In this document: piece by piece, positions 13,613 to 43,832 of the stretch
Numbering within the stretch: the first letter of the stretch is position 1
Layout of the letters: every line of letters starts with the position of its first letter
Assembly (NCBI GenBank): GCA_963806165.1
Contig: CAWDWZ010000007.1
Coordinates: forward strand, 1 to 64,000
Length of the DNA stretch: 64,000 bases
Direction of reading: 5' to 3'
Origin: Thermoanaerobaculia bacterium
Lineage (GTDB): Bacteria; Acidobacteriota; Thermoanaerobaculia; Multivoradales; JAGPDF01
Program-made: the position numbers and the translations under genes
Notes under the pieces: model-generated
Told to the model about the DNA's origin: nothing
The model's database searches: none
The model's input: the letters and a program-made list of their open reading frames with translations, nothing else

Positions 13613-13645
13613 GGAAGAAGTCGGGGAGAGTCCCCATTTCCTCCC
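13613..13645. repeat. Family-B short palindrome (consensus GAAAAATGGGGAC-N1-3-GTCCCCATTTTC), degenerate copy
   Basis: gaagaagtcggggagagtccccatttcctccc. Confidence 0.5.
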
Positions 13646-13810
13646 TAAGCTCGTCTTGGCGCGCCAGAAGGCGCCTGCGAATTCCGTCTTTACCTTGGTA
13701 TGGATGTCTTAGCGGAAAAGTGGGCCCGTTGCGGAGTCGTTCCCGCGCTCGAGTCCGCCGTTGTTCGGATGACAAGTATTCCCAAATTGGGTACAATCGT
13801 TCCCATAATG

Positions 13811-14422
13811 GGAAAGTTACGAGAGAAGGCTCTGGGGAGTGGGTTGGCGGGGGCGCTATTCACGCCGGTGCAGCAGCGCGTGCTCGGGCTGCTCTTCGGG
13901 CAGCCGGAGCGGCGCTTTCGCAGCGGGGAGATCATCCGCTTGGCGGCGAGCGGGACGGGGGCGGTGCACCGCCAGTTGCAGCGGTTGGCGGCGGTGGATC
14001 TGGTCGAGGTGACCCGGGAGGGAAACCAGAAACACTATCGGGCGCGGCGCGAGTCGCCGATTTTCGCCGAGCTCCATGGGCTGATCGCGAAGACCGTCGG
14101 CATTGTCGATCCGCTGCGGCTGGCGCTCGCCCCGCTGGCCGGGAAGATCGAATTGGCGTTCGTCTTCGGCTCGATCGCCAAGGGAAGCGACACCGCGGCG
14201 AGCGATCTCGATCTTCTGGTGGTGAGCGAAGAGCTCGAATATGCCGAGGTCTATCAGGCGGTGGAGAAAGCTGAGCGCTTCCTGGCGCGGCCGGTGAATC
14301 CGACCGTCATGCGACCCGCGGAGTGGCGAGCGGCGCGGACGAGGCAGGACTCCTTCGCGTCGCGCATCGCCGAGCAGCCCAGGATCTTCGTCATCGGGAG
14401 CGAGGGAGCCGCGGGTGCCTAG
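13811..14422 (+). CDS. wHTH + minimal nucleotidyltransferase (MNT) antitoxin
   Basis: ELAFVFGSIAKGSDTAASDLDLLVV (GS..D.D nucleotidyltransferase motif) after a winged-helix N-terminus. The in-frame ORF starts at 13700; MGKLREK chosen as the likely start. Confidence 0.65.
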   Translation, partial: GKLREKALGSGLAGALFTPVQQRVLGLLFGQPERRFRSGEIIRLAASGTGAVHRQLQRLAAVDLVEVTREGNQKHYRARRESPIFAELHGLIAKTVGIVDPLRLALAPLAGKIELAFVFGSIAKGSDTAASDLDLLVVSEELEYAEVYQAVEKAERFLARPVNPTVMRPAEWRAARTRQDSFASRIAEQPRIFVIGSEGAAGA

Positions 14423-14849
14423 CCTTGAGCTCGATCGGCTGGTCGCCACTCGCGACCTACAGCGCGAGTCTGCGTCGAGGTCGGAGTTCGAGGGGCTTCT
14501 GCGCTCGGCGGAGGCGCGGCTCCAGGATGCGGAGAACGACCGGAACTCGATCGACAGCCGTTTCGACCTGGCCTACAACGCCGCACACGCACTGGCGCTC
14601 GCGGCGCTGCGTTGGCACGGCTACCGCCCGGTCAAACGCTACATCGTCTTTCCGGCGCTGGCGCACACGGTCGATCTCCCGCGCGAGAGCTGGCGCCTGC
14701 TTGCGAAGTGCCACGACCAGCGCAATCGCACCGAGTACGAGGGGCTGGCACCGATCGAGTCGGCACTCCTCGCGGGCCTCCTCGAGGTGACCCGGGAGTT
14801 GCTGGTGCGGGTGCGGGCACTGGCACCGCTGAGCATCCCGGACTCGTAG
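14415..14849 (+). CDS. HEPN-domain toxin partner of the MNT
   Basis: Overlaps the MNT stop. HEPN-like region ...KCHDQRNRTEYEG... . Confidence 0.55.
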   Translation: MPSLELDRLVATRDLQRESASRSEFEGLLRSAEARLQDAENDRNSIDSRFDLAYNAAHALALAALRWHGYRPVKRYIVFPALAHTVDLPRESWRLLAKCHDQRNRTEYEGLAPIESALLAGLLEVTRELLVRVRALAPLSIPDS

Positions 14850-14899
14850 GTACCGGGAAGACTCCTCTGGAGTCGAAGTGAGCCAGCCGCGAGCTCGCG

Positions 14900-14932
14900 A
14901 AGAAATCGGAAACAGTCCGCATTTCCTCCCGC
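14900..14932. repeat. Family-B palindrome, degenerate copy
   Basis: gaagaaatcggaaacagtccgcatttcctccc. Confidence 0.45.
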
Positions 14933-15042
14933 ACTGCCAGATTCGACCGACAGATCGCGTCTTACCTCTTTCGAGGGCAACGACCCGATGCGGATCGTGG
15001 AGGAAGACCAGCTTCCCCCAGCTTCCCGTGAAGGAGTGACCG

Positions 15043-15264
15043 ATGAAGGACTATCCCATCAACATCTTCTGGAGCGAGCCCGATGCGAGCTATGTCGCCG
15101 ACATTCCCGACCTCTTCCCCTGCACGGGTTTCGGCGCCACGCCGGAGCGGGCGCTCGCCGAGGTGATGCTCGCGCGGGAGGCGTGGCTCGAGACAGCGAA
15201 GGAGAACGGCTTGGCGTTTCCGGTAGCGATGTCGCGGTTGGATGCGGAGACGGGTGGGGGGTGA
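15043..15264 (+). CDS. HicB-like antitoxin-family small protein (no HicA seen)
   Basis: MKDYPINIFWSEPDASYVADIPDLFPCTGFGATPERALAEVMLAREAWLETAKENG resembles the HicB N-terminal domain. Confidence 0.5.
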   Translation: MKDYPINIFWSEPDASYVADIPDLFPCTGFGATPERALAEVMLAREAWLETAKENGLAFPVAMSRLDAETGGG

Positions 15265-15357
15265 GCGGCGCGCGGAGCGGTGCCCGGAATTGCTTGACAT
15301 CCAGAACGGATGCATAATGGAAACCGGACGGATCCATCAGATTCGGAAGGGGTTACC

Positions 15358-15603
15358 ATGGCGACGTTGACGCTGAAGAATGTGCCGGAAGCGCTGGTCG
15401 AGCGGCTGAAACGGGAGGCGAAGCAGAGCCGCCGAAGTCTGAATCAGGAGACGCTTGCGCGGCTCGAGGCGAGCCTGGCGACGCGCCGGCAGACCAGCGA
15501 GGAGAAGATCGCCATCATGCGGGAAGCCCACGCGCGTCTTGCGCACCTGCCGCCGATGACCGACGAGTTCCTCGACTTCGCCAAGCGCGACGGACGGCTT
15601 TGA
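15358..15603 (+). CDS. vapB: RHH (Arc/MetJ-type) VapB/FitA-like antitoxin
   Basis: MATLTLKNVPEALVERLKREAKQSRRSLNQETLARLEA. Stop overlaps the downstream TTG start (TTGA coupling). Confidence 0.65.
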   Translation: MATLTLKNVPEALVERLKREAKQSRRSLNQETLARLEASLATRRQTSEEKIAIMREAHARLAHLPPMTDEFLDFAKRDGRL

Positions 15604-16004
15604 TCGTCGTCGACACCAACCTGCTCGTCTACTCGGTCATTCCAGGCGAGAGCACGGCGCTGGCGCTTCGCGTCGCCGCAAGCGACGCCGACTGGATTGC
15701 CCCGTCTCTCTGGCGCCACGAGCTCGCCAACGCTCTGGCGACCGAGATGCGGGTGCGAGGGATGACGATGCGCGATGCCGTCATCGCTTTCTCCGCAGCC
15801 GAGCGTCTCGTGGTCGACGCGGAGCTCGCCCCCGGCCTCGAAACGAAGCTCGAGCTCGCCGCGCGCGGCAAGGTCTCGGCCTACGACGCCGAATTCGTCG
15901 CCCTGGCGCAGGAGCTCGACCTGCCGCTCGTCACCGCCGACCGGCGGCTGGCGCTGGCGTTTCCGGAAAGAGCGCGAGGGCTCGCCGAGTTCCTCGGCGA
16001 GTAG
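15600..16004 (+). CDS. vapC: PIN-domain VapC/FitB-like toxin
   Basis: IVVDTNLLVY..., acidic residues spaced as in PIN domains, C-terminal ...LVTADRRLA. Confidence 0.7.
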   Translation: MIVVDTNLLVYSVIPGESTALALRVAASDADWIAPSLWRHELANALATEMRVRGMTMRDAVIAFSAAERLVVDAELAPGLETKLELAARGKVSAYDAEFVALAQELDLPLVTADRRLALAFPERARGLAEFLGE

Positions 16005-16005
16005 G

Positions 16006-16094
16006 GGGAAATCGGGGACAGCCCCCATTCCTCGGGGACGGCTGGGAGAGGCGGGACGAACTCTCGAGAAATGGGAATAGTCCCCATTTCTTCC
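16006..16094. repeat. Two family-B palindromes ~35 bp apart
   Basis: gggaaatcggggacagcccccattcc ... gagaaatgggaatagtccccatttcttcc. Confidence 0.6.
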
Positions 16095-16144
16095 CCGGCT
16101 CACAAGGCCCTGTGGGTCTAGAATGTCGCCAAGGGAGGCGGACG

Positions 16145-16462
16145 ATGGGCCAGGGAGAGGCGCAGGTGCGCGCGCGAATGCCGGAGCTCACGGCGCTCTG
16201 TCGGCGTTTCGGCGTGCGTCGGCTCGAGCTCTTCGGGTCCGCTCTCCGCGCGGACTTCGACCCGGCGACGAGCGACCTCGATTTCCTCTTAGAGATCGAG
16301 CCGCCAACAGGCCTGGGCTACGCCGATGCCTACTTCGGCCTGCACGAGGGCCTCGAGCAGCTGTTCGGGAGAGCTGTCGATCTCGTCTCGATCGGAGCGG
16401 TCAAGAACCCCCACCTGCTGCAGGCCATCGAGCGTTCGAGGCGATCGCTCTATGCGGCTTGA
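16145..16462 (+). CDS. mntA: MNT antitoxin of a HepT/MNT pair (start ambiguous; 16178 also possible)
   Basis: RLELFGSALRADFDPATSDLDFLLE nucleotidyltransferase motif. Confidence 0.65.
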   Translation: MGQGEAQVRARMPELTALCRRFGVRRLELFGSALRADFDPATSDLDFLLEIEPPTGLGYADAYFGLHEGLEQLFGRAVDLVSIGAVKNPHLLQAIERSRRSLYAA

Positions 16463-16792
16463 GGCGCGGAAGCTGATCTGGGATGCGCGCGAGGCCGTTG
16501 CCAGGATCCAGGAGTTCACCACAGGAAGTCGCTGGAGGACTACGACGCTGACGCCCTGCTGAGCTCGGCGGTCGAGCGTCAGCTCGAGATCGTCGGCGAG
16601 GCGCTGCACCGTCTGTCCAGGCTCGATCCCGAGACGGCGGCGGGCATCGAAGGGATCTCCCGCATCGTCGGGATGAGAAATGTTCTCGCGCATGGCTACG
16701 CGACCATCGACAACCGGCTGGTATGGGATGTCGTTACGAGCAAGCTCCAGGGGCTCGCGGCGCAACTCGAAAGTCTGGCGCGCGAGGTCTGA
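16459..16792 (+). pseudogene. hepT: HepT (DUF86/HEPN) toxin interrupted by a 1-nt frameshift near 16525
   Basis: Frame 1: MRLEARKLIWDAREAVARIQEFTTG then stop. Frame 2 continues ...LEDYDADALLSSAVERQLEIVGEALHRLSRLDPETAAGIEGISRIVGMRNVLAHGYATIDNRLVWDVV... (Rx4HxY HEPN motif). Confidence 0.6.
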
Positions 16793-16806
16793 CTGGGCTT
16801 CAGTTC

Positions 16807-17112
16807 TCAGCGCTTTCGCGCGCCGCCATAGCGGGCGATCTCGGTGATCTCCTCATCCGTGACGAGGTCGATCAGGTAGAGGACGCCGCGGGCGATCCGA
16901 AAGATCAGTCGGTCCCCGGACGAGATGCGCGCTTCGCTGTAGAACTTGCCAGGAAGTATCGGTTTGATCCGCATTCCAGGCGTCGGCTGGTGCCGGGCCA
17001 GAGCTTCGATCACCCGCAGGGAGGAGAGGCGGCGAGCTACCGGCAGGCCGCGGAGGCGCTGCTCGAAGCGGCTGCCGTAAGAGACCTGCAGCTCGGCCCT
17101 GCTGGAAGTCAT
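16807..17112 (-). CDS. RelE/ParE-family toxin
   Basis: ...YSEARISSGDRLIFRIARGVLYLIDLVTDEEITEIARYG pattern. 4-nt overlap with the upstream antitoxin. Confidence 0.6.
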   Translation of the reverse strand: MTSSRAELQVSYGSRFEQRLRGLPVARRLSSLRVIEALARHQPTPGMRIKPILPGKFYSEARISSGDRLIFRIARGVLYLIDLVTDEEITEIARYGGARKR

Positions 17113-17507
17113 CGCGACTTCGAGCGCGGCTTCGAGCGCTTCGTCGGATGTGCCTGGGGGCGTGCCTGGGGGCGTGCTTGGGGGCGTCGGGTCCCGGGAG
17201 CGGAGGCCTTGGGAGATTCCGGGCCCGGCTCGTTCAGCCGGCGAGCCAGGTCGGCGACGCTCTCCCGGCGCACAGCCCCGGAGCGGATCTCCTGTTCAGC
17301 GGCACGCAGGCGCTCCTGCATTTCGGGATGGTAGAACCACCTCTGATCGCGCGGCAGCAGTTCCGCCGCCACCAGCTCGTAGCCGCCCGCCGCGGTCCGT
17401 TCCAGCAAGACGAAGTCGCCCGGCCCCACGCCCAGCGCTTCGCGCACCTCTTCGGGCAATGTGGCTCGGCCCTTCTTGTCCAGCGTCAGGTAGGTCGCAC
17501 TCGCCAT
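17109..17507 (-). CDS. AbrB/MazE/SpoVT-family antitoxin with a low-complexity RPQA-repeat C-terminal tail
   Basis: N-terminus ATYLTLDKKGRATLPEEVREALGVGPGDFVLLE is a swapped-hairpin AbrB fold. The tail is encoded by tandem 12-mers (tgcctgggggcg)x3-4 at ~17150-17200. Confidence 0.6.
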   Translation of the reverse strand: MASATYLTLDKKGRATLPEEVREALGVGPGDFVLLERTAAGGYELVAAELLPRDQRWFYHPEMQERLRAAEQEIRSGAVRRESVADLARRLNEPGPESPKASAPGTRRPQARPQARPQAHPTKRSKPRSKSR

Positions 17508-17522
17508 AGTGCGCGGAGCAAT

Positions 17523-17572
17523 AGCATCCCTTTGTGGGCTTATCCCACTGTGGGCTTATCCCACTGTGGGCT
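17523..17572. promoter_or_regulatory. Direct 16-bp repeats (tgtgggcttatcccac x2.5) upstream of the AbrB-type antitoxin; candidate operator
   Basis: ctttgtgggcttatcccactgtgggcttatcccactgtgggctga sits immediately 5' of the 17507 start on the minus strand. Confidence 0.4.
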
Positions 17573-17584
17573 GAACAGAGAGTG

Positions 17585-17612
17585 AAACTGGGGACAGTCC
17601 CCATTTCTTTTC
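17585..17612. repeat. Family-B palindrome, adjacent to a family-A copy
   Basis: gaaactggggacagtccccatttctttt. Confidence 0.6.
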
Positions 17613-17633
17613 TGCCATCTGGAGAATGGTGGC

Positions 17634-17732
17634 GAGGGGACACATAGCGGGTTCTGGCGGGGTCGCGAAGTCGGCACATCGATTCGCCCGCAATGTGTCC
17701 CCAGCTGGCAGCATTGCCCGCAATGTGTCCTC
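17634..17732. repeat. Family-A palindromic repeat, right arm duplicated
   Basis: ggggacacatagcggg...cccgcaatgtgtcccc...cccgcaatgtgtcctc. Confidence 0.7.
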
Positions 17733-17858
17733 AAAGTCCACCACTTGCAGAGTCCAGCGAAAGGGTGGACCCATGGCGAGCCGGGCCGGCTGAAACCGCA
17801 AAGCATCCAAGAAGACGTAAGGCCGATCGCACATCGCCGATCGACCCGGGGAGGTCCC

Positions 17859-18578
17859 ATGCATCTGGCGGAGATCTGGCGGTATCCGGTGAAGTCGATG
17901 GCGGGGGAGTCGCTCGAGGAGGCGGAGCTGACACCGTCGGGCGTCGAAGGCGACCGGCTGGTCCAGGTCCGCCTCGGCGATCGCCCCGACGATCGAGTGA
18001 TCACCTCGCGCAGCCGGCCGCGGCTCCTCGGGCACCGTGCGCGACTCGGCGCCGGCGGCGAGATCCTGGTCGACGGGCGACCATGGGGCGATCCGTCGGT
18101 GAAGGAGGACGTCGAGCGTGCCGCCGGAGCTGGGGCGCGGCTGGTGCGCACGGAGCTCGCCCACGAGAGATTCGACATCCTGCCGCTCCTCGTCATGACC
18201 GACGGGGCTATCGCGGTGATCTCGAACGCTTCGCTCGCCGCCGGCTCGACCGAGACCGACCGTCGCCGATTCCGGCCGAACCTGCTCATCGCCGGTGTGC
18301 CCGGTCTCGCCGAGCGCGGCTGGGAGGGGCGGCGCCTTCGGATCGGAAACCCGGGCAAGGCGGGCCAGACGGGTAGCGCCGGCGGGGTCGTGGTGGCGCT
18401 GGCCGACCTCCGCGGGCGCTGCGTCATGACGACGTTCGATCCCGACACCCTCGAGCAGGAGCCGCGCGTGCTGCGTACCATCGTCGAACGGACCGGCGGT
18501 GTCCTCGGACTGAACGCCGAAGTTGTGCGGGGCGGCCGAGTCCGCGTCGGCGATCCGGTCGAGTTGCTGGATGGGTGA
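17859..18578 (+). CDS. MOSC domain-containing protein
   Basis: MHLAEIWRYPVKSMAGESLEEAEL...GVEGDR opening is typical of the MOSC beta-barrel N-terminus; followed by the MOSC core. Confidence 0.6.
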   Translation: MHLAEIWRYPVKSMAGESLEEAELTPSGVEGDRLVQVRLGDRPDDRVITSRSRPRLLGHRARLGAGGEILVDGRPWGDPSVKEDVERAAGAGARLVRTELAHERFDILPLLVMTDGAIAVISNASLAAGSTETDRRRFRPNLLIAGVPGLAERGWEGRRLRIGNPGKAGQTGSAGGVVVALADLRGRCVMTTFDPDTLEQEPRVLRTIVERTGGVLGLNAEVVRGGRVRVGDPVELLDG

Positions 18579-18613
18579 GAATCCGGTCGGCCTTCGTGAC
18601 GCCGAGCCGGCGC

Positions 18614-18686
18614 GGTAGGGGACACAAAGCGGGGGCAACCCGCCGGCGTGTTAGCGCACCGGCCGTGCCCCCGCATTGTGTCCCCG
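18614..18686. repeat. Family-A palindromic repeat (near-identical to the 13137 copy)
   Basis: gcgcggtaggggacacaaagcggggg-N31-cccccgcattgtgtcccc. Confidence 0.7.
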
Positions 18687-18738
18687 ACGAACGCGACAGA
18701 GTTGGGTCCTGGGAGCGGATTGCGGCAAGATCGGCGGG

Positions 18739-19230
18739 ATGAGGACGGTTCGCGGACCGCGCCCGAGCGACGGCATGCCGATCGAGGAGGCGCCGGTCTG
18801 GGCGCTGGCGATCCTCGTCGCCCTCTTCGCGCTGATCTTCTTCCCGGCGCTCGTCGGCCTGGCCGAATCGTTCGGTGCCGACACGCGCGGGCACCGTCTC
18901 GAGCTCGCCGCGGGCGCCGCGGCGCTCGCTCTCTTCCTGGTCGTCGGGCTCGCGCGGCAGCGGCGCTGGCGGCGGGCGCGGTCACCGCTCGACGCGCTCG
19001 ATCCGCTCGCTCCGCTCGCTGCAGACGACCGGCCGATCTTCGCCCGCTTTTCGACCTGGCTCTGGACGACGCTCCTCTTCCCGAATGTCCTCTACGGCCT
19101 GCTCGTGCTGACGCACTCTTCGGAAGGCGCGCGCGTCGATCCGCGGGCGGCGTGGATCGTCGGCCTCGGGGTCTCGGCCCTGCAGGGCCTCTGGGCCCTC
19201 GCGGAGCGCCGGCGCGGGCGCGCCGGCTGA
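18739..19230 (+). CDS. Hypothetical membrane protein
   Basis: Several hydrophobic helices (WALAILVALFALIFFPALVGL, ALALFLVVGL, WLWTTLLFPNVLYGLLVL). No recognisable domain. Confidence 0.35.
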   Translation: MRTVRGPRPSDGMPIEEAPVWALAILVALFALIFFPALVGLAESFGADTRGHRLELAAGAAALALFLVVGLARQRRWRRARSPLDALDPLAPLAADDRPIFARFSTWLWTTLLFPNVLYGLLVLTHSSEGARVDPRAAWIVGLGVSALQGLWALAERRRGRAG

Positions 19231-19236
19231 GGGCCG

Positions 19237-19322
19237 CGGTTGTGCAGGCGGCGCTCCTCATCCGGCTCGTGCAGCGCTATCCCGACACCTTGCAACGCCT
19301 CGCCGCTACGGTTCGACGCAGA
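19237..19322 (+). pseudogene. 3' fragment of a higA2-like antitoxin gene (DNA homologous to 13050-13125)
   Basis: Encodes ...QAALLIRLVQRYPDTLQRLAATV, near-identical to the C-terminus of the 12777-13121 product (NAQAALLIRLVQCYPDTMQRLAAV). Other frames also match. No 5' part. Confidence 0.5.
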
Positions 19323-21072
19323 TGAGGAAGTGCGAGCTCAGATTGCAGGGTTGGGAGTTGAAGTTCCACCAGCGGGCATCGGCCAGGGCCGTGTACGCGG
19401 CGCCGCCCGCGGCGCCGGCGGGATTCGTCCAATCGGTGCAGGTTCCCGCCGTGGTGCCGAGGGCGGTCAAGTCGCCGTTGTGGCCGGTCCAGGTGAGCTC
19501 GGCCGCGGCGAGATAGTTGCCGTTGTGGTGCTGCCAGATCCCGGTGGGAAGCCCGGTCGCGGGGATGAGCTCGGCGCCGGTGCCGACCGCCTGGCCGTCG
19601 ATGCGGACGTAGGTCGCGCCGGCGGTCAAGGCGTTCGACGCCGGGGCGGTCGTGCGCGCGACGAGCGCGAGCGCCCCGGCCTGGTCGGCGGCACAGGTCT
19701 GGTCCGGCGTCGTCGTGCCGTTGGGCACGAAGGCGCCGTTCGAGATCCAGATCTTCTTCCCCGGCACGACGGGCGGCGTCAGGGTGGCGACCTGGGTCTT
19801 CATCAGGCAGTAGATCCGGTGCGGCGCGGCGCAGGCCTGGGTCGAGTAGCGGGTCCACGCCACCGGCCCGCCGGCGGTATCGCCGTAGGCGACGAAGCTC
19901 GACCCCCCGGTCCAGTCGCTGCAGCTCTCCGCCGTCGTGCCGTCGCTCGCGGTGCCGGTCATGACGATCTCGCTCGCCCGCCGGGTTCCGGTCTCGTCGA
20001 GATCGAGCGCCTGGAAGATCTGACGGTTGGTGAGCAGCTGGGTCTTGCTGTCGGCGAAGGGGGCGCCGTCCATCCGCACCCAGCCGCGCGGATTGCCCAG
20101 CCGCACGGTCGCGCTCGAGACGGTCGACGAGATCCAGGCCATGAAGGCGGTCCCGGCGACGTTGTTGATCCCGGCGGCGGTCGCGAGCGCGTTGCATTGG
20201 GTGTCGTAGGCGCCCACCGAGCCGAGGTTGACCGCGAAGGTCGTCGAGGAGACGAAGGCGAGATTCCAGGTCTGGGCCGAGAAGTTGGCGGTGACATTCT
20301 GCGCCGCGGTGACGCTCAGCGTGCAGTCGTGAAACGCGCCGGCGCCCGCGCAATCGTCCGCCCAGCCCGAGAAGTAGGAGCTTGCGCCGTTGCTGGTGCG
20401 CGCCGCGAGGGTGACCGCCGTGCCGTGCTCGAAGATTCCCGTGCAGGTGGCGCCGCAGGCGATGCCGGCCGGCGTGGAGGTGACCGTTCCCGTGCCGTTG
20501 CGGGTGACCGTCAAGGAGTGGCCGAAGTGCGCCGAGACGCTGGTCGTCTGGTCGACGATCACGATGCAGGCCCCGGTGCCCGAGCAGGCGCCGCTCCAGC
20601 CGAGAAAGAGGGCGTCCGCATCGGGGGTCGCGGTGAGGGTGACCTCCGTGCCGGCGTCGAAGAACGCCGAGCAGGTGGCGCCGCAGTCGATGCCGGCGGG
20701 GCTCGAGCTGACGGTGCCGCCGCCGGCGTTCGTCACCGTGAGCTGGTAGGGCGTGTCGCAGAGTCCGAGGTAGCAGATGCCCGAGAGGCAGTCGGAGCCC
20801 TGCAGGCAGTTGAGGCCGAAGGTGCAGCCCGGGCAGGAGCGGCCGCCGCAGTCGATGTCGGTCTCGCAGCCGTTCTGGATCAGGTCGGTGCAGTTGTCGA
20901 CCTCGGGCGGCACGACGTTCGACCAGAGGCAGCTGTTGCCGCTCTCGAGGCCGTCGAGGAAGAGCAGCAGGTCGGGCGTGGCCGGGCCTGACCGCACCGC
21001 ATCGGCTGCGAGCGCGGTGGGCAAGAGCGCGAGCAGCCACCCGGCGATCGCAGCCGCGGACCTTTCGGCCAT
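19306..21072 (-). CDS. Secreted protein with InlB B-repeat (Listeria-Bacteroides repeat)-like domains and two DUF1554-like domains
   Basis: Signal peptide MAERSAAAIAGWLLALLPTALA. Repeats GGGTVSSSPAGIDCGATC..., GTGTVTSTPAGIACGATC.... C-terminal halves resemble DUF1554 (Y.AWiSs...W.R.DG..., W.....C..HFLiC). Confidence 0.6.
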   Translation of the reverse strand: MAERSAAAIAGWLLALLPTALAADAVRSGPATPDLLLFLDGLESGNSCLWSNVVPPEVDNCTDLIQNGCETDIDCGGRSCPGCTFGLNCLQGSDCLSGICYLGLCDTPYQLTVTNAGGGTVSSSPAGIDCGATCSAFFDAGTEVTLTATPDADALFLGWSGACSGTGACIVIVDQTTSVSAHFGHSLTVTRNGTGTVTSTPAGIACGATCTGIFEHGTAVTLAARTSNGASSYFSGWADDCAGAGAFHDCTLSVTAAQNVTANFSAQTWNLAFVSSTTFAVNLGSVGAYDTQCNALATAAGINNVAGTAFMAWISSTVSSATVRLGNPRGWVRMDGAPFADSKTQLLTNRQIFQALDLDETGTRRASEIVMTGTASDGTTAESCSDWTGGSSFVAYGDTAGGPVAWTRYSTQACAAPHRIYCLMKTQVATLTPPVVPGKKIWISNGAFVPNGTTTPDQTCAADQAGALALVARTTAPASNALTAGATYVRIDGQAVGTGAELIPATGLPTGIWQHHNGNYLAAAELTWTGHNGDLTALGTTAGTCTDWTNPAGAAGGAAYTALADARWWNFNSQPCNLSSHFLICVEP

Positions 21073-21156
21073 GTCGGTCCCCCCTCCCGGAATTTTTCGA
21101 ACAATGCGCGCCGGCGACTCGCCTGTCAAGAGGAGCGCTGCGGGGGTAGGCAGCGT

Positions 21157-21184
21157 GAAAAATGGGGACAGGCACCATTTTCCA
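21157..21184. repeat. Family-B palindrome (GGGGACAGGCACC variant)
   Basis: gaaaaatggggacaggcaccattttcc. Confidence 0.6.
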
Positions 21185-21305
21185 TTCGCCGTCTGCTCCG
21201 CCGCTCGGGGTCCTGTCTGGCCCTTTTCCCATGGGTGCTCGCGCTGAAGAAGCGCGCTCCGCGCCCATGGGAGCCCTAGGTCCAGCCACCCCTCGCCAAC
21301 GTGTG

Positions 21306-21356
21306 GAGAAAATGGGGACTGTCCCCATTCTTTCCAGGGTTAAAGTGTGCCTGTCC

Positions 21357-21366
<10 letters not shown>
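21306..21366. repeat. Family-B palindrome plus an inverted partial copy of the GGCACC variant
   Basis: gagaaaatggggactgtccccattctttcc followed by aaagtgtgcctgtccctattttt. Confidence 0.6.
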
Positions 21367-23546
<2,180 letters not shown>

Positions 23547-23563
23547 TCTAGTCGGCGCCTTTC

Positions 23564-23630
23564 AGGGGACACAAAGCGGGGCGACCGGCGTCGTGCTGGT
23601 CGCGACTCTCTGCCCCCGCATTGTGTCCCC
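23564..23630. repeat. Family-A palindromic repeat
   Basis: ggggacacaaagcgggg-N30-cccccgcattgtgtcccc, between convergent/divergent genes. Confidence 0.7.
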
Positions 23631-23638
23631 AGGCGTGA

Positions 23639-30797: not shown

Positions 30798-30866
30798 GAG
30801 GGGACACAATGCGCGGGCCAGCTTTAACGCGGCTCGCAGATCGGGTCGCCCGCGAATTGTGTCCCC
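30798..30866. repeat. Family-A palindromic repeat
   Basis: ggggacacaatgcgcggg-N30-cccgcgaattgtgtcccc. Confidence 0.7.
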
Positions 30867-30876
30867 GGTGTCGTCT

Positions 30877-32247: not shown

Positions 32248-32262
32248 GTCCGGAGCCCTCTC

Positions 32263-33030: not shown

Positions 33031-33054
33031 CGCGCTCAGGCTAACAGGGGACGA

Positions 33055-33178
33055 GCGGGAGGGGACACATCGCGCGGGGCCTCGCCGTCAAGGTGTCCCT
33101 CCAAGGTGTCCCTCCAAGGTGTCCCTCCAACGTGTCCCTCCAAGGTGTCCCTCCAACGTGTCCCTCCAACGTGTCCCC
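33055..33178. repeat. Family-A repeat whose right arm is tandemly amplified (13-mer aaggtgtccctcc x ~7, 33089-33178)
   Basis: Left arm ggggacacatcgcgcgggg, then aaggtgtccctcc / aacgtgtccctcc units ending ...gtgtcccc. Confidence 0.7.
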
Positions 33179-33190
33179 GGTGCTGGCGGC

Positions 33191-36954: not shown

Positions 36955-37156
36955 GCCTTTCCCTTACGCGCATCTCTGGGCGGCGGAAAGAGCTGTTAGG
37001 GTAGGTGGCGAGCTGCCCGTTCGCGCAGGTCGACGAGCGATCGAACTGACATTCAAACGCTCCCGGTGGCGCCTGACGGCCGGCCGATGGCATTCCTCGT
37101 GCACGCCCTCTCCGCAGTCAGGTTCGCAGCGTCCCGAGAGTCGACGGAGGCACCGC

Positions 37157-37570: not shown

Positions 37571-37589
37571 GCCCGGCTCTCCTGCGCCC

Positions 37590-39018
37590 CTAGGGCACCT
37601 GGACCGTCCAGGCGTCGGTCGTGCCGCCCTCGAAGCCGTCCAGGAAGAGGATGAACGGCAACGGGGCACCGTCGGCCTCGACGGCGCCGATGTCGCAGCC
37701 GTCGGCGGTGTCGGGAATGAGCGGGTTGTCGACCGGACGGCGGTTGGTCGCGATCGCGCCGTAGCCGCGCTGATCGCGGCGGTCGTCCGGGCACTCCCCG
37801 TGGTCGACGAGAAGACTGCCCGGCGAGGGGGCGTGGGTTCGCGTGGGGCCGCCGTTGTCGGCGAGCAGATCGAGGCCGGCGACGACCGGCGCGGCTCGGC
37901 TGCCGACCCAGTCGTCGTTGGCGTTGGGCGCGCCGGTGGGAAAGAAGGCATCGGCACCGTCGCGGACACCGATCAGGTTGAGACCTTGCGACAGAATCGC
38001 GGAGCTCGCGTTGACCGAGAGGTCGCTCGGCAGCGCGCTGCCGAAATTGTTGCCGATCACGCTGTTGTGCAGGTTCACCGTCGAGGGAGAAAGGATATCG
38101 GCGACGAGGTAGAGACCGCCGCCGAGCTCTCCGGTATCGTCCAGGTTCACGTCGGCACTGTTTTGAGTGATGGTCGTGCTGTCGATCAGAACCGTGCCAT
38201 AGATCACGATCACGCCGCCCGCGGCATCCTCCGCGCTGTTGCCGCTCACGGTCGAGCGCCGGATCTCGCCGTTCGTCCAGCCGAAGACCACCCCGCCGCC
38301 CGCCCCCTCGTTCACCACGTTGTTTCCGGAGATCGTCGAATCCAAGATGCGCAGGAAGGCGGTGGGCGCGCCGCCGGGCGTCACGATTGCGGGCCCGCCT
38401 TCGCCGAGCAAGTAGATTCCGCCTCCGCTCCGGCTGACGTTGTTGTCGACGGCGCTGCGCACGAGCGTGATCGCGGCGGCATGATCGCCGTAGATCGCCC
38501 CGCCGGTGGAAAGGGACTCGCAGGCCGTGATGCGGCTGTCGAAGACCTCGAGGAAGTCGCTTTCGTGGATCGTGATGCAGCCACCGCCGCCCGAGTGCAG
38601 CCCGTTGCGGATGGTCAGGCGCTCGAGGCTGCAGCAGCTTGCCGTTCGGCGCGCCGTTCAGCACCAGCACGCGGTGATCGGCGCCGTTCAGGGTGAGCGC
38701 GCCGGTGAGTGGCCCGGAGATCGTCAGGTTCTGCGTGATGATCGGCAGGTCCGAGCCGAGGACGATCGCGCCGGTGAGATCGAACGTCACGACGTCGTCG
38801 CCGCTCCCGGCGGGGCAGCCCAGGTGCGCGAGGTCGTCGTTCGCGGCCTGGATCGCCTCCCGGAGGGAGCACAGGCCGTCGTCGGCGTCGGTGTCGGAGA
38901 GCGTGTCGACGGCGATCGTCGCCGCCGTGAGAGGCGCCGGGAGGGCGAGGTGCAGCGCCGCGAGGGTCGGGAGCGCGAAAGCGCAGAGAGCGATGGGAGT
39001 GAACCTGGAAAGGGGCAT
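37590..39018 (-). pseudogene. Secreted right-handed beta-helix protein with N-terminal CSLREAIQAAN motif and shared C-terminal LFLDGFEGG..W tail; one frameshift near 38640
   Basis: N-terminal frame from 39018 (MPLSRFTPIALCAFALPTLA...DGLCSLREAIQAANDD...). Switches near 38640 to the frame giving ...LERLTIRNGLHSGGGGCITIHESDF...RSAVDNNVSRSGGGIY... and ends ...PLPFILFLDGFEGGTTDAWTVQVP. Confidence 0.6.
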
Positions 39019-39180
39019 GAGAGTCTCCTTTCCTCAAGTGGCGACAATCGTGCCCGAATCTGGACATGGGAGCTCGCGGTTCGCCGGCGGGGGCTACCGA
39101 GACCCGGCCGCGAGGCCTTAGGATGGGTTGGCTCACCTGGGCTCAGGTCCCAAGAGAGAAAGCGAAGAGGAGATCGAGAG

Positions 39181-40131
39181 ATGGCGGACAAGAAGATCAT
39201 CGCGGTGGTCGGCGCCACGGGCGCGCAGGGCGGCGGACTGGTGCGGGCGATTCTGGCGGACAAGGGGAGCGAGTTCGCGGTGCGGGCGATCACCCGCAAG
39301 CCCGACTCGGACAAGGGAAAGGCGCTCGCCGCGGCGGGCGTCGAGGTGGTGGCGGGGGACGCCGACGCTCCGGCGACGCTCGCCGGCGCATTCGCCGGCG
39401 CCCACGGGGCCTTCGTGGTGACGAACTTCTGGGAGCATCTCTCCGCCGAGCGCGAGCTCGCGCAGGCGACCGCGATGGCGCGCGCCACGCGCAGCGCGGG
39501 GGTGGAGCATGTCGTCTGGTCGACCCTCGAGGACACGCGCAAGTGGATTCCGCTCGCCGATCCGCGGGTGCCGACGCTGCACGGCAAGTACAAAGTGGAG
39601 CACTTCGACGCCAAGGGCGAAGCCGACGCCGTCTTCGCCGCCGAGGCGGCGCCGACGAGCTACCTCGTGACCTCGTTCTACTGGGACAACTTCATCCACT
39701 TCGGCATGGGTCCGCGCCGCGGCGAGAACGGCAAGCTCGGCATCGCCTGGGCGGCCGGTGGCGCGCCGTTGCCCGGTATCGCGGTGGACGACATCGGCGC
39801 TTGCGCCTACGGGGTCTTCAAGAAGGGAGCGGGCGTCGCCGGGAAGCGCTACGGGATCTGTGGCGAGGTCCTCACCGGGCAGCAGATGGCGGCGGGAATG
39901 GCCAAACATCTCGGCGAGCCGGTGAGCTTCACCGACGTGCCGTTCGAGGTCTACCGCAACCTCGGCTTCCCGGGCGCCGAAGACATGAGCAACATGTTCC
40001 AGGTCCAGTCGATCTTCTCCAAGGAGTTCCTGGCCAACCGCAGCGTGAAGCTCGCACGGTCCCTCCATCCCGGCCTGCAGAACTTCGACACCTGGCTGAC
40101 CCGAAACATCAAGAGGATCCCGATCGGCTAA
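39181..40131 (+). CDS. NmrA-family NAD(P)-binding protein
   Basis: MADKKIIAVVGATGAQGGGLVRAIL Rossmann start. NmrA-like length and pattern. Confidence 0.7.
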   Translation: MADKKIIAVVGATGAQGGGLVRAILADKGSEFAVRAITRKPDSDKGKALAAAGVEVVAGDADAPATLAGAFAGAHGAFVVTNFWEHLSAERELAQATAMARATRSAGVEHVVWSTLEDTRKWIPLADPRVPTLHGKYKVEHFDAKGEADAVFAAEAAPTSYLVTSFYWDNFIHFGMGPRRGENGKLGIAWAAGGAPLPGIAVDDIGACAYGVFKKGAGVAGKRYGICGEVLTGQQMAAGMAKHLGEPVSFTDVPFEVYRNLGFPGAEDMSNMFQVQSIFSKEFLANRSVKLARSLHPGLQNFDTWLTRNIKRIPIG

Positions 40132-40433
40132 CTAGATTCGCGAGCGCGCCGCCACGCCTTCGGTTGCCATGGGATCCCCTCCGTTCGGTCGGGACCCCGG
40201 TCGATCTCATCTTTCTCTTGCGGACAGGGGCCCCACCACCCAGGCGGGCAGTGGAGACGCCCACTCATGCGGGCGGTTGCGCGGTGGGATGGCACAGGCA
40301 CCATATGAAGTGGAGGTCGCGGAGCTCGCGGTCGCGCGCTCCGGCGCCGGGTTGAACCTCCAGCCGAAGATCGCCACCGAAGGCCTCTCGTTCCGGCGTC
40401 GCGGGTCTCCCTCCGTGGCGGGGGAGACCTCTG

Positions 40434-41657
40434 ATGCAGTTCTTCCGCGTTCTCGCTTCGCTTGCCCTCGCTGCTCTCGTCGCCTCGCCGCTCTCCGCGG
40501 TGACGCGACGCATGTTCATCTCTTCGGTCACAGGTAACGGGAATCTCTCCACCTGGGCCGACGCAGGGGGTTTGACCGGACTCGAAGCCGCCGACGCCGT
40601 CTGCCAGGCGCGCGCCACCGCGGCGAGCCTGCCCAACGCGTCGGGCTACCGGGCCTGGCTCTCCGACTCGGTCGACGACGCCTACTGCCGGATGCACAAC
40701 CTCGCTGGCACGCGAGAGACGAACTGTGGTCAGGCGACGCTTCCGGACACCGCGGGCCCGTGGTGGCGCACCGACGGCAAGCCGTTTGGCGCCGGACTTC
40801 CCGACCTCGTAGCCCCGCTCGAGCAGGTGCTCCTTCCGCCCTCGGTGAACGAGTTCGGCGTCGACTTGCAGATCGCCCAAACCTGGACCGCGACGAAACT
40901 GGACGGCGCCGTGGGCCCGGGTTCTTGCGCCAACTGGACCTCGGCGGCGCCTGCGGATCTGGCGCACTTCGGATTGGCCTACGACACGTCCGGCAGCTGG
41001 ACCTTCGCCGGAACTTCGGGCTGCTCGGATTGGAATCTCCGCCTCTACTGTTTCGAAACCGGTCTCGGGGATCCCCTGCCGATTTTCCCGCCTTGGGGGC
41101 GCCTGGCCTTCGCGACCTCTGCGGAGGGTACAGGCGACCTGAGCTCCTGGCCCGGCGCGGCCGGCGCGACCGGACTCGCAGCGGGTGACGCGATCTGCCG
41201 GAACCTCGCTTCGGCGGCGGGCCTCCGGCAGTCCGCCTCATTCAAGGCCTGGCTCTCAGCGGAAGGCACGAATGCGATCGGCCGCTTCCAGCATGACGGA
41301 CCATGGATGAGGCTCGACGGCATCGTGGTCGCGGAGAGCCGCCTGGACCTGACCGACGGCGATCTCGACTCGCCGATCAACCTGACCGAGACCGGGCTGT
41401 ACGTGGGCGGTGCCGGAATCTGGACCGGCACTCTGATGGACGGGTCGTTCGCTCCGACGAACTGCTCCAACTGGATCTCGACGACCGCGACGGGGGAAAT
41501 CGGAGTGGCGAACAATTCCCTCCTCGCGTGGACCTCCAATGGCAGCCTCACCTGTGGCTTCGCCTACGCCAGCCTCTATTGCCTGCAGGACTTGCCGCTC
41601 ATTTTCCTCGACGGCTTCGAGAGCCAGGGGACGCGGGCGTGGTCGACCGTGCAGTGA
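40434..41657 (+). CDS. Secreted protein with two DUF1554-like domains and the shared C-terminal tail (LPLIFLDGFESQGTRAWSTVQ)
   Basis: Signal peptide MQFFRVLASLALAALVASPLSA. RMFISS...GNGNL.TW..AGGL.GLEAADAVC...YRAWLS...LYCFE, repeated. Confidence 0.6.
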   Translation: MQFFRVLASLALAALVASPLSAVTRRMFISSVTGNGNLSTWADAGGLTGLEAADAVCQARATAASLPNASGYRAWLSDSVDDAYCRMHNLAGTRETNCGQATLPDTAGPWWRTDGKPFGAGLPDLVAPLEQVLLPPSVNEFGVDLQIAQTWTATKLDGAVGPGSCANWTSAAPADLAHFGLAYDTSGSWTFAGTSGCSDWNLRLYCFETGLGDPLPIFPPWGRLAFATSAEGTGDLSSWPGAAGATGLAAGDAICRNLASAAGLRQSASFKAWLSAEGTNAIGRFQHDGPWMRLDGIVVAESRLDLTDGDLDSPINLTETGLYVGGAGIWTGTLMDGSFAPTNCSNWISTTATGEIGVANNSLLAWTSNGSLTCGFAYASLYCLQDLPLIFLDGFESQGTRAWSTVQ

Positions 41658-41762
41658 GTCCCTAGTCCTCCGCTACGGCACCGAGACCGACCAGCGGCAA
41701 ACCCTGGGCGCGCGAGGAGCTCGATTTTCTAGTACTCTTCGTCGCTTCTTGGGAGATCTCAC

Positions 41763-42389
41763 GTGGTCCACTTGCGAACTTCGCTGCTCAGCCTTCTCGC
41801 CGTGCTCGGCTGCGCGGGTGCGTCGTCGGCGCAGAATCTGCTGACGATCAACCCGGACTTCGACAGCGGCCTCGGCCTGACCTCGTGGCAGACTGCCTGG
41901 GGCTCTTGGGTCCTGGGAGCCGACTCGGGGAGCTGCCTGCTCTCGGAGTCCGCGGCGGGCACGTCGGCGGATTCGGGTGGGACCCAGATCATCGGGCTGG
42001 TCTCGGAGCAGTGCATTCCGCTCGATCCGGTAGCGACGCCCACGCTCTTCATGGGAGCCCTCTACAGGTCCTCGGCGAACGTCTACACGCGCTTCTATCT
42101 GCAGTTCTTCTCCGACGGCACCTGCACGACGTTCGACAGTTGGAGCGCCTGGGCGTTCGGCTCCATTTCACCGAACTGGAATTCGATCCTGGGCGCGATC
42201 CCGATCCCGGCGACGGCTCTGTCCGCGAAGGTCTGGAACGACGTCATCCCCGCCTCGGCCTCGGAGCCGCAGTTCACCGCCTCGTTGGATCGGATCTATC
42301 TCGGCGTGCTGCCGTGGATCTTCGTCGACGGCTTCGAGGCCGAGAGCGGCAGCGCCTGCCACTGGTCGAGCATCGTCGGCGGGATCTGA
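41763..42389 (+). CDS. Secreted hypothetical protein ending in the shared tail (LPWIFVDGFEAESGSACHWSSIV)
   Basis: Signal peptide MVHLRTSLLSLLAVLGCAGASSA. No recognised domain. Confidence 0.5.
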   Translation: MVHLRTSLLSLLAVLGCAGASSAQNLLTINPDFDSGLGLTSWQTAWGSWVLGADSGSCLLSESAAGTSADSGGTQIIGLVSEQCIPLDPVATPTLFMGALYRSSANVYTRFYLQFFSDGTCTTFDSWSAWAFGSISPNWNSILGAIPIPATALSAKVWNDVIPASASEPQFTASLDRIYLGVLPWIFVDGFEAESGSACHWSSIVGGI

Positions 42390-42432
42390 GAAGCGCGGGA
42401 TCAGCGAACGCTGGACTTTCCCGGCGCTCTTT

Positions 42433-42705
42433 CTAGTTCCAGTCGCCGCCGCCGCAGCAGCCGCCCCCGCCCCCTCCACATTGCGGGCGGCCGCAGCCGA
42501 AACCCTCGCTGGCTTCCGCATGCGCGTGCGCCGCGCCCGAGCCGTTGCCCATGGAGCCGGATGCCACCGCGAAGGTGGAGAGCTGGCGCTCGACGTGCTG
42601 GCCACCGCACGCCGGGCAGACGGTCTCGGCGGCGTTCGCACCCAGGTGCTGGATCAGCTCGAAGCGCCCCTGACAAGCGGGGCAGCGGTATTCGTAGAGT
42701 GGCAT
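42433..42705 (-). CDS. FmdB-family zinc-ribbon protein
   Basis: MPLYEYRCPACQGRFELIQHLGANAAETVCPACGG...; Gly-rich tail. Confidence 0.6.
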   Translation of the reverse strand: MPLYEYRCPACQGRFELIQHLGANAAETVCPACGGQHVERQLSTFAVASGSMGNGSGAAHAHAEASEGFGCGRPQCGGGGGGCCGGGDWN

Positions 42706-42796
42706 CGGCGGTCCTCCCAGCCGACATTCTATCGTCGCTCCCCCGAATCGCCCGCCTCCCGCGCCAGCTGAGGCAGAATGCGGGTGAGCCGGCAAC

Positions 42797-43832
42797 CGTG
42801 AAGAAATGGGGACAGGCACCGATTCTCTCTTTCCTCGCGTTCGGCGCGTGGCTGATCGGGGTTGCGGCGGGAGGAGGCGGGATGCCGCGGGTCGTCGTCG
42901 AGGCGCCGCCGGCGCTCGCGCCGGTGGCGCGGGAAATCGAGGCGTTGGCACCCGCAGCGCTCGCCGCGGCGGCGCGCCTCACCGGCGTCCTCGCCAGCGA
43001 AGCGGCCGCGGCGTCCGGCTCGGGACCGGCTCCGATCAACGTCCTTCTGGTGGAGGAGGGAGCCGCCGGGGCGCGCGCGGTGCCGCCCTGGATCTCGGGC
43101 TACGCGATCGGGACCGATCAGATCGTGCTGCTGCCGGCGCGGGTCCATCGCTATCCCGACTTCGGCCTGGCCGCGCTGCTCCGTCACGAGTTGACCCACG
43201 TCTATGTCGCCCGCGCGGCGGGCGCCGGTGACGTACCGCGCTGGTTCAACGAAGGTCTGGCGCTGGCGGTGGGCCGCGAGTCGGATCTCGGCGATCGTGC
43301 CCGCGTGGCGCTGGCGGTGATGAATGACTCGAGCCTGCCGCTCGCCCGCCTCGATGTCGCATTCGCCGGCGGCGAGGCCGAGGTCCAGTCGGCTTATGCG
43401 CTCGCCGGCGATTTCGTGCGCGAGCTGCTGCAGCGCCACGGTCAGGAGACGGCGGCGCTGGTTCTTTCCGGAGTCGCGCGCGGCGAGCGCTTCCGCGACG
43501 CCTTTCGCACGGCGACCGGAGAGTCCCTCGCTGACTTCGAGGCCAGCTACTGGAAACGCCGCACCCTGCTCGATCGTTGGGTGCCGATTCTCTCGAGCTC
43601 GGTTCTGCTCTGGGGCGGCATCGCTCTCCTCGCTCTCGCCGCCATCCGCCGCCGCCGCGCCCGCGACGCCGCGCGCCTGGCGCGCTGGGGAGTGGAAGAA
43701 GGAGAGATTCCGGGCGAGCTCGACATGGATGTCGAAGGCGAGCTCGAAGGTGAGCTCGAAGAAGCGGCGGAAAAACCGCCGGACGATTGGCCGCCGCGCA
43801 AGCCCGATCGCAAGCTCTGGCGCCGCCGATGA
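42797..43832 (+). CDS. Membrane-associated protein with an HExxH (HELTH) putative metallopeptidase motif and an acidic repeat tail
   Basis: ...GLAALLRHELTHVYVARAAG...WFNEGLALAV... C-terminal TM helix (LLWGGIALLALAAI) then ELDMDVEGELEGELEE. Start approximate. Confidence 0.45.
42800..42827. repeat. Family-B palindrome (GGGGACAGGCACC variant)
   Basis: gaagaaatggggacaggcaccgattctc. Confidence 0.5.

Follow-up and report, generated by a model that had tools for sequence, protein, structure and literature searches.

The 64,000-nucleotide (nt) stretch analysed here, called the window, covers positions 1 to 64,000 of the forward strand of contig CAWDWZ010000007.1, from a Thermoanaerobaculia bacterium (assembly GCA_963806165.1). 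It carries two abundant families of intergenic repeats: family A, a longer hairpin, and family B, a short palindrome headed by GGGGAC, which is the subject of this analysis. Family B lies outside genes, its palindromes are identical to repeats flanking TIRYT genes in many genomes, TIRYTs being terminal inverted repeat (TIR)-associated tyrosine transposases, and its paired form, the doublet, recurs as a unit.

A gene map of the window, which has about 68% G+C, was built from codon-position G+C (third-position, or GC3, frames) and Pfam matches. A toxin-antitoxin island occupies 12.4–17.5 kb, with helix-turn-helix (HTH)/MqsA-like, nucleotidyltransferase, HicB-like, FitA-type ribbon-helix-helix (RHH) plus PIN, and MazE-like genes. 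The neighbours of family-B copies that do not belong to toxin-antitoxin systems are a Ser/Thr kinase gene, a MOSC gene, and a Peptidase_MA_2 gene.

Copies and sequence of the family-B repeat

A profile built from the copies (nhmmer) detects exactly nine family-B copies in the window, spanning 13614–42829; the initial annotation had listed at least eight, and the family stands far above chance. Seven matches to GAAAAATGGGGAC with up to two mismatches are found, against 0.61 expected, and none of 100 shuffles reached seven. Likewise, ATGGGGAC matches eight times (1.17 expected), and GGGGACNGTCCCC, with at most one mismatch, four times (0.37 expected). The copies are listed below, with the folding energies of their hairpins as single-stranded DNA (ssDNA) and the corresponding z-scores.

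13614..13644: B copy 1, imperfect, GGGGAGAGTCCCC; 12 nt past a possibly truncated ParE-like frame (end 13602) and 56 nt before an ATG at 13700; −6.4 kcal/mol, z −1.2
14899..14929: B copy 2, degenerate, CGGAAACAGTCCGC, missed by the initial annotation; 50 nt past a stop at 14849 and 114 nt before a HicB-like gene at 15043; −6.6 kcal/mol, z −2.3
16005..16033: B copy 3, GGGGACAGCCCCC, left half of a doublet; begins 1 nt after the PIN gene stop at 16004
16067..16094: B copy 4, GGGAATAGTCCCC, right half of the doublet; 18 nt before a nucleotidyltransferase gene at 16112; −7.7 kcal/mol, z −2.9
16002..16099: whole doublet; −23.6 kcal/mol, z −2.7
17582..17609: B copy 5, perfect core, TGGGGACAGTCCCCA, meets a lax terminator rule; 75 nt upstream of a minus-strand MazE/AbrB-like gene (start 17507) and 27 nt before the family-A copy at 17636; −7.0 kcal/mol, z −2.1
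21155..21183, plus strand: B copy 6, GGGGACAGGCACC variant, outer arms GAAAATGG/CCATTTTC still pairing; 26 nt upstream of the minus-strand gene 19306–21129; −5.5 kcal/mol, z −2.1
21305..21335: B copy 7, AATGGGGACTGTCCCCATT, a perfect palindrome over 19 nt and the best of the nine; lies downstream of the kinase gene and forms a pair with copy 8; −8.9 kcal/mol, z −2.5
21337..21366, minus strand: B copy 8, a variant of the GGCAC type that has decayed, AAAAATAGGGACAGGCACAC as read on the minus strand; extends over the stop (21357–21359) and the final few codons of the Ser/Thr kinase gene 21357–23546; −1.7 kcal/mol, z −0.5, non-significant
42799..42829, plus strand: B copy 9, GGGGACAGGCACC variant, in a divergent intergenic region; 53 nt before an ATG at 42882 (Peptidase_MA_2 protein, ribosome-binding site GGAGGAGG) and 94 nt from a minus-strand ATG at 42705; z +0.2, non-significant

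The family consensus is GAAGAAATGGGGAC-W-GTCCCCATTTCTTC, within A/T-rich flanks (GAAGAAAT…ATTTCTTC). The repeat had been described as a perfect palindrome of 25–30 bp, which overstates its symmetry: a perfect GGGGAC-N-GTCCCC core occurs in only two of the nine copies (at 17596 and 21320), perfect palindromes extend over 15 and 19 nt at their longest, and the remaining copies are imperfect. In three copies, the right arm is replaced by the variant GGCAC(C). The variant form GGGGACAGGCACC was confirmed at 21164 and 42808, and its inverted version, with two mismatches, at 21346–21358. The two pairs that had been reported are also real (16005–16094 and 21305–21366).

The head of the repeat fits the motif GGGGWSAS, in the form GGGGACAG. 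The strict motif is present in six copies (13623, 16014, 17590, 21164, 21319 on the minus strand, and 42808), the other three being off by one or two bases. Folded as ssDNA, the copies yield about −1.7 to −8.9 kcal/mol, and six of the nine fold better than shuffled sequences (−5.5 to −8.9 kcal/mol, z about −2 to −3).

Gene context

On the gene map, all nine copies fall outside likely coding sequence, in line with the original claim, although the copy at 21337–21366 touches the kinase stop codon. Between 12 and 24 kb, only about 17% of the DNA is intergenic on this map, yet the eight family-B copies found there are all intergenic. By our own rough estimate, the chance of such an outcome is roughly 0.17^8. 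The distance to the neighbouring start or stop codons varies between 1 and about 136 nt, without the fixed position that a toxin-antitoxin operator would have.

Several local features adjoin the copies. The island and its surroundings, downstream of tRNA-Leu (8974–9046), have 59–66% G+C (4000–18,000), compared with about 68–72% in the rest of the window, and the region between 7 and 24 kb holds six of the eight family-A and eight of the nine family-B copies. This low-G+C stretch with its repeats may constitute a genomic island or a repeat-tolerant zone. A short reading frame at 13505–13602 (WTEEAADRLREIRDYIAKRNALDTEQRLAAV*), which we take to resemble the N-terminus of a ParE/RelE-type toxin, stops 12 nt before the first family-B copy and, because it ends so close to the repeat, may be a toxin gene truncated there.

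Family A and its relation to family B

Family A, with eight copies in the window, is a hairpin of about 67 nt (GGGGACACAWWGCGG…CCGCWWTGTGTCCCC) with the same GGGGWSAS tag as family B, present in all eight copies.

7366..7432: A copy 1 of 8
12232..12318: A copy, right arm duplicated
13141..13208: A copy
17636..17732: A copy, with an extra right-arm repeat at 17718–17732; adjoins B copy 5
18618..18685: A copy
23565..23630: A copy
30800..30866: A copy
33061..33179: A copy, interior expanded by about eight tandem 13-nt units (CAAGGTGTCCCTC)

Each copy starts with GGGGACAC, which is found on both arms, and the sharing of the GGGGAC core between the two families therefore holds, as does their adjacency (family B at 17582–17609, family A at 17636–17702). 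The 13-nt unit CAAGGTGTCCCTC also holds a GGGACAC-like core, on the opposite strand. In the whole window, GGGGWSAS occurs 40 times, against 24 in shuffles. This excess is made up of GGGGACAC (family A, 17 occurrences) and GGGGACAG (six of its eight occurrences being family B), and the two families are thus GGGGWSAS-tagged families of the TIRYT kind. Family B is of the self-complementary type, while family A resembles a non-palindromic repeat joined to an inverted copy of itself.

It had been proposed that family B could be the minimal hairpin form of family A. Family B is, however, not a truncated family A, because the flanks differ (the A/T-rich GAAGAAAT…ATTTCTTC of family B are absent from family A). 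Furthermore, B-type palindromes are present in many genomes without family A. The link between the two is real only as a shared transposase tag. The cassette-like toxin-antitoxin genes also raised the idea that family A consists of integron attC sites, which was set aside, though no search for an integrase was made, as family A has the TIRYT tag; in addition, GGGGACACAAT…-like repeats, similar to family A, flank TIRYT genes elsewhere.

The palindrome in other genomes

Scanning with AAATGGGGACNGTCCCCA, at one genome per species, retrieved at least 120 loci. The core AAATGGGGAC-W-GTCCCCATTT is thereby found in about 15 phyla, next to unrelated genes. The groups listed are Bacillota, Actinomycetota, Pseudomonadota, Acidobacteriota, Gemmatimonadota, Myxococcota, Omnitrophota, Elusimicrobiota, Caldisericota, Armatimonadota, Nitrospirota, Planctomycetota, Bacteroidota, Kiritimatiellia, and Paceibacterota. 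Among the matches listed, the loci span 27–75% G+C, the full 21-nt palindrome is present in 72 of 152 sites (about 1.6% expected), 147 of the 152 carry A or T at the centre, and 23 loci have two sites or more, mostly 27–121 nt apart. The flanks vary between genomes, often extending the palindrome. Since cultured isolates also carry it (Fictibacillus halophilus, Peribacillus spp., Olsenella uli, and Novosphingobium sp.), an artefact of metagenome-assembled genome (MAG) assembly was rejected.

Other identities for the repeat were discarded. A CRISPR-like array was ruled out by the irregular spacing and by the occurrence of copies singly or in pairs, and a sigma-54 promoter reading of the GGCACC variant was ruled out by eye, the spacing to the GC element being unfit. 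Searches of Rfam 15 returned no family overlapping a family-B copy, whether with gathering thresholds or with E ≤ 1. Carriage by phages was not found either, 2.9 million viral contigs yielding no match. A literature search for exactly GGGGACAGTCCCC and GGGGACTGTCCCC returned only an unrelated paper on human antisense oligonucleotides.

In Usitatibacteraceae MAG_AAO_AS.47 (betaproteobacterial), a composite element is formed by a palindrome, a TGTAACA…TGTTACA hairpin, and a second palindrome, with 48–66 nt spacing. It is present on at least eight contigs (L030, L039, L058, L072, L094, L103, L108, and L113), and appears to be a high-copy derivative resembling REPINs, the hairpin-forming doublets of repetitive extragenic palindromes (REPs).

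Three related Thermoanaerobaculia loci (L009, L086, and L087) have seven, two, and four family-B copies, respectively. The first of these, a MAG locus about 85% identical to parts of the window, a similarity that assigns the window to this class, carries its seven copies, together with several family-A copies, in 8 kb. The window doublet (16005–16094) recurs twice in L009, at 2146–2230 and 5262–5351. These two doublets are 93% identical to each other and 79–84% identical to that of the window. Since homology does not continue past the repeat into the flanks, which are unrelated, the doublet behaves as a unit of its own. While the L009 doublets are 93% identical, the flanking genes diverge from the window by about 15% or more, which suggests fairly recent copying.

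Operator and terminator functions

The initial annotation regarded the palindrome as a plausible site for a dimeric DNA-binding protein, with the AbrB/HTH antitoxins as candidates. The palindromes would then be operators through which dimeric AbrB/MazE, RHH, or HTH antitoxins autoregulate the operons of the island. The sequence is indeed dyad-symmetric, eight of the nine copies are in or beside the island, and some lie near promoters, such as 16067–16094 (18 nt before a start codon) and 17582–17609. Nevertheless, a 21-nt palindrome found at so many loci across phyla has no toxin-antitoxin family common to its neighbours, several copies follow stop codons, and others flank the kinase gene 21357–23546, the Peptidase_MA_2 gene at 42882, and the MOSC gene. 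The island also encodes at least five unrelated antitoxin folds, for only one repeat family. Neither a fixed position nor a single antitoxin family was found, and the operator reading, contradicted by a cross-phylum, context-independent distribution and by variable spacing, is very unlikely. A 17-nt unit, CTTATCCCACTGTGGG(C), in 2.5 tandem repeats at 17530–17572, just upstream of the minus-strand MazE/AbrB-like gene, is a stronger operator candidate for the MazE-like antitoxin than family B. What remains of the original proposal is that a protein very probably recognises the palindrome; the protein associated with it in the comparisons below is a Y1 HUH transposase (TIRYT), and not an AbrB/HTH antitoxin.

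The palindromes could also primarily be bidirectional intrinsic terminators, or hairpins stabilising mRNA 3′ ends, and be kept by selection. A G+C stem is placed between an A-run and a T-run, several copies directly follow stop codons (13614, 16005, and 21305/21337), and, according to Di Nocera et al. (PMC3733652), classical REPs are known to acquire such roles. However, just two of the nine copies satisfy even a lax terminator rule, and the region as a whole has eight terminator-like sites, against 4.6 in shuffles. The hairpins have weak stems of little length and interrupted T-tracts (ATTTC), so that the stable G+C stem followed by a U-tract of an intrinsic terminator is not characteristic of the family. 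Furthermore, the loop and the centre are conserved in sequence (W in 147 of the 152 listed sites), which termination does not need, several copies are upstream of start codons in divergent regions (17582 and 42799), and neither near-identity across phyla nor the flanking of transposase genes would be expected. This explanation is therefore improbable, and a terminator or mRNA-stabilising effect of family B would be incidental or secondary at most.

Y1 transposases bracketed by the palindrome

The open reading frames (ORFs) within 1.2 kb of the palindromes were clustered, all against all, for the 120 listed loci. Among the matches listed, the shared neighbours are generic clusters (ABC ATPases and response regulators) and one family of IS200-like Y1 HUH proteins (Y1_Tnp); one further cluster was spurious, resulting from read-through of the repeats themselves. 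The Y1 family was found by tblastn in five of the 120 loci, from a Gemmatimonadaceae, an Acidobacteriota, a Lachnospiraceae, an unclassified MAG, and Fictibacillus halophilus. In all five, the gene is bracketed on both sides by inverted GGGGAC…/…GTCCCC palindromes or half-sites.

The five aligned proteins are 183–253 amino acids (aa) long, match PF01797 above threshold, and share an invariant HuH motif NH[TV]H and Y motif RY[IV]ExNP (RY[IV]E/HxNP). LWQG is present in three of them, replaced by LWDS and LQQD in the other two. The NCBIfam model REP_Tyr_transpos (NF047646) scores them at 57–71 bits, below its 80-bit cutoff, and the closest solved structure is the E. coli TnpAREP-REP complex (4ER8). 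A profile search retrieved more than 7800 homologues, mostly named just "transposase".

These homologues offer an independent view of the sequences around the gene. In the four that were fetched with their contigs (Azonexus, Desulfosediminicola, Nitrosomonas communis, and a Pseudomonadales MAG), either GGGGACAGACCAC is present about 55–60 nt upstream or a GGGGACGGAGCAC hairpin is found, with the reverse complement GTGGTCTGTCCCC just downstream. For 80 metagenome loci, the best inverted repeat around the gene was sought without bias, and its arm contains (G)GGGAC in about 55 of the 66 evaluable cases (counted by eye). In 75 of 82 loci, the 260 nt upstream of the gene contain G[GT]GAC[AG], where about 23% would be expected (our estimate); the modal distance from the TIRYT start codon is about 55 nt. 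The arms form a continuum, from fully self-complementary (AAATAGGGACAGTCCCTATTT and AATGGGGACAGACCCCATTT), through the intermediate GGGGACAG-N-CACC, which matches the window variant (as in the sixth family-B copy), to non-palindromic (GGGGACACCATAC…). Two plasmids fit the same pattern: in that of R. rubrum ATCC 11170, the TIRYT copy is flanked on either side by AAAGGGGTCAGACCCCTT, and in one from P. aeruginosa, AAAGGGGACAGAT… precedes the gene. The enzyme is rarely plasmid-borne (28 of 72,556 plasmids).

In unrelated genomes, TIRYT genes are also found beside toxin-antitoxin pairs: HepT/MNT in Azonexus, PIN/VapB in Nitrosomonas communis, and Doc with a regulator on the R. rubrum plasmid. These cases correspond to 11943–12574 of locus L121, 10867–11459 of L123, and 1–482 of L205. 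The co-location of TIRYT-type repeats with toxin-antitoxin islands may be general.

Comparison with known repeat systems

TIRYTs are described as genes resembling those of RAYTs (REP-associated tyrosine transposases), with terminal inverted repeats, many of which share GGGGWSAS (Di Nocera et al. 2013, PMC3733652). Some of the repeats are self-complementary, some moderately abundant families occur as singles, dimers, and clusters, and the Acidobacteria are a sharply defined, TIRYT-rich group (PMC3733652). TIRYTs correspond to TnpAY1 subclass 2.1, i.e., Group 1 of Bertels (Quentin et al. 2018, PMC6006769), with a median size of 238 aa, the HuH motif NHVH/NH[YF]H, W[EQ], the Y motif YIELNP/Y[IV]HLNP (PMC6006769, Table 1), and a frequent C-terminal helix-turn-helix-like domain (PMC6006769). 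Among the RAYT groups, Group 1 has the widest distribution, spanning 21 classes (Bertels et al. 2017, PMC5581495); it is flanked by only modestly repeated 16-mers, and its members are described as largely domesticated, with low copy numbers (PMC5581495).

The five Y1 proteins agree with subclass 2.1 in size, in their NH[TV]H and Y motifs, and in matching PF01797. The repeats agree with the TIR families in their GGGGWSAS tag (as GGGGACAG in family B and GGGGACAC in family A), in being partly or wholly self-complementary, and in their dispersal between genes as singles, dimers, and clusters (nine copies with two pairs in the window, and 7, 2, and 4 copies in the related MAG loci). Identical palindromes bracket TIRYT genes, in inverted orientation, in other genomes, as seen in 5/5, 4/4, and about 55/66 loci and on the two plasmids. 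The difference is that the cognate TIRYT gene is outside the window; moreover, the TIRYT papers compared do not mention the perfect-palindrome form or the near-identity over about 15 phyla.

Canonical REP/REPIN-RAYT systems (E. coli, Pseudomonas, and Stenotrophomonas; GT[AG]G-tagged, with TnpAREP subclasses 2.2 and 2.5) are also close. They too rely on intergenic palindromes of 20–40 nt, as singlets and inverted doublets, and on a Y1 HUH enzyme flanked by its own repeats (REPtron), 4ER8 being the nearest structure. Nevertheless, family B has no 5′ GT[AG]G foot, its flanks being GAAGAAAT and ATTTCTTC. This foot, typical of RAYT subclasses 2.2, 2.4, 2.5, 2.7, and 2.8, abuts no family-B stem, and the sole nearby GTAG (15999–16002) belongs to the stop codon region of the PIN gene. 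The associated proteins score under the NCBIfam RAYT cutoff (57–71 vs. 80 bits), and, whereas each lineage has canonical REPs of its own, which evolve together with their RAYT, the core of family B is almost invariant across phyla.

The subterminal hairpins of insertion sequences of the IS200/IS605 type share the Y1 HUH superfamily and the use of hairpin DNA as a recognition element. They differ in that family-B repeats are dispersed without a gene and the associated genes are low-copy; besides, the Y motif of IS200 is Y---Q, whereas the proteins associated with family B have the class-2 Y---NP. Toxin-antitoxin operators and intrinsic terminators resemble family B in their dyad symmetry, intergenic location, and proximity to toxin-antitoxin operons, while family B is without fixed promoter spacing or a consistent U-tract, and its spread over phyla is independent of the neighbouring genes.

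Interpretation

Family B is best explained as a REP-like, self-complementary, non-autonomous hairpin repeat of the TIRYT type, a form of "junk DNA" dispersed by a TIRYT encoded elsewhere, a reading to which we attribute a probability of about 0.8. Its spread was probably brought about in trans, by an enzyme encoded outside the window. By analogy with the Y1 HUH enzymes E. coli TnpAREP and IS608, and on the basis of what is established for this enzyme class (PMC8266576), the source genome would encode a TIRYT, its substrate would be ssDNA, and the transposase would mobilise the repeat. Such an enzyme would recognise the GGGGAC(A)G head and the palindrome hairpin on ssDNA, then cut and rejoin the strand, and thereby disperse the repeat into non-coding spacers, either singly or as a doublet of about 90 nt. 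The dispersed copies would afterwards decay.

Several points weigh against this reading. Neither the window nor the three related loci contain a TIRYT/Y1 gene detectable by tblastn. No REP-like sequence was found for subclass 2.1 in an earlier survey (PMC6006769), and the literature searched yielded no biochemistry for this subclass, the papers that mention TIRYTs being without enzymology. The hairpins are weak (−2 to −9 kcal/mol as ssDNA), and three of the nine, which we call decayed, fold no better than shuffles. Because subclass 2.1 proteins carry extra C-terminal domains, including the HTH domain, the palindrome may instead be recognised as double-stranded DNA (dsDNA). Finally, eight of the nine copies cluster within 8 kb.

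Some of these observations would also suit fossil or domesticated sites, the TIRYT having been lost or having become a dsDNA-binding regulator through its C-terminal domain, and the immobile copies having taken on an architectural or regulatory role in the host. The lack of a TIRYT gene in the window and related loci, the decay of many copies (14899, 21337, and 42799), the largely domesticated, low-copy state of Group-1 RAYTs (PMC5581495), and the HTH-like tails of subclass 2.1 (PMC6006769) are in its favour. The absence of the gene, however, says little, because the DNA inspected from this lineage amounts to 64 kb plus 24 kb only, and the near-identity of the L009 doublets, next to the greater divergence of the flanking genes, is at odds with immobility. 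This alternative is accordingly unlikely, though less so than the operator or terminator readings.

Dispersal by a TIRYT would explain both abundant intergenic families of the window as one known kind of selfish or domesticated element, and would dispel an attractive but mistaken regulatory view of the toxin-antitoxin island. The data also tie a perfectly self-complementary REP-like hairpin to Group-1 RAYT/TIRYT genes in many phyla, and make GGGGACAG-headed hairpins the obvious candidate substrate for the most widespread RAYT group. While the kind of repeat is already known, the one notable point is the near-identity of the palindrome across about 15 phyla. A bolder proposal, which we hold tentatively and at slightly under even odds, is that AAATGGGGAC-W-GTCCCCATTT is the cognate hairpin of the largest RAYT group (Group 1/subclass 2.1/TIRYT), almost unchanged in at least 15 phyla. 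If so, a subclass reported to be without REP-like sequences would run a REP/REPIN-like system after all, and its recognition sequence would have stayed fixed throughout bacteria, in contrast to classical RAYTs, whose REPs are specific to a lineage and evolve together with the enzyme. Conservation of this order would suggest either that horizontal spread is frequent or that the protein-DNA interface is exceptionally constrained.

Other features of the window

A 67-nt piece of the 3′ end of the HTH/MqsA-like antitoxin gene (13049–13115) is repeated, with 93% identity, at 19241–19307, an intergenic position 6.2 kb away. It looks like the relic of a gene fragment and suggests rearrangement within the island. 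Two tandem paralogous genes without a Pfam match (10628–11320, 230 aa, and 11560–12198, 212 aa) are 71–73% identical in DNA, with an 887-nt spacing, and have a homologue of about 85% identity in L009.

The order of the rRNA genes at the left end of the window is unusual. A tRNA gene (cut by the window edge), 5S (91–207), and 16S (421–1917) follow one another on the same strand, and the 5S gene is thus directly upstream of the 16S gene.

Two longer repetitive regions are located further to the right. Degenerate repeats with a 27-nt period extend over 17 registers at 49157–50229, with 60–75% identity, and presumably constitute a repetitive coding region. At 58390–60250, repeats about 142–144 nt apart encode a recurring …GxELWxSDGT… motif, presumably from a protein with ELWxxDGT-type repeats.

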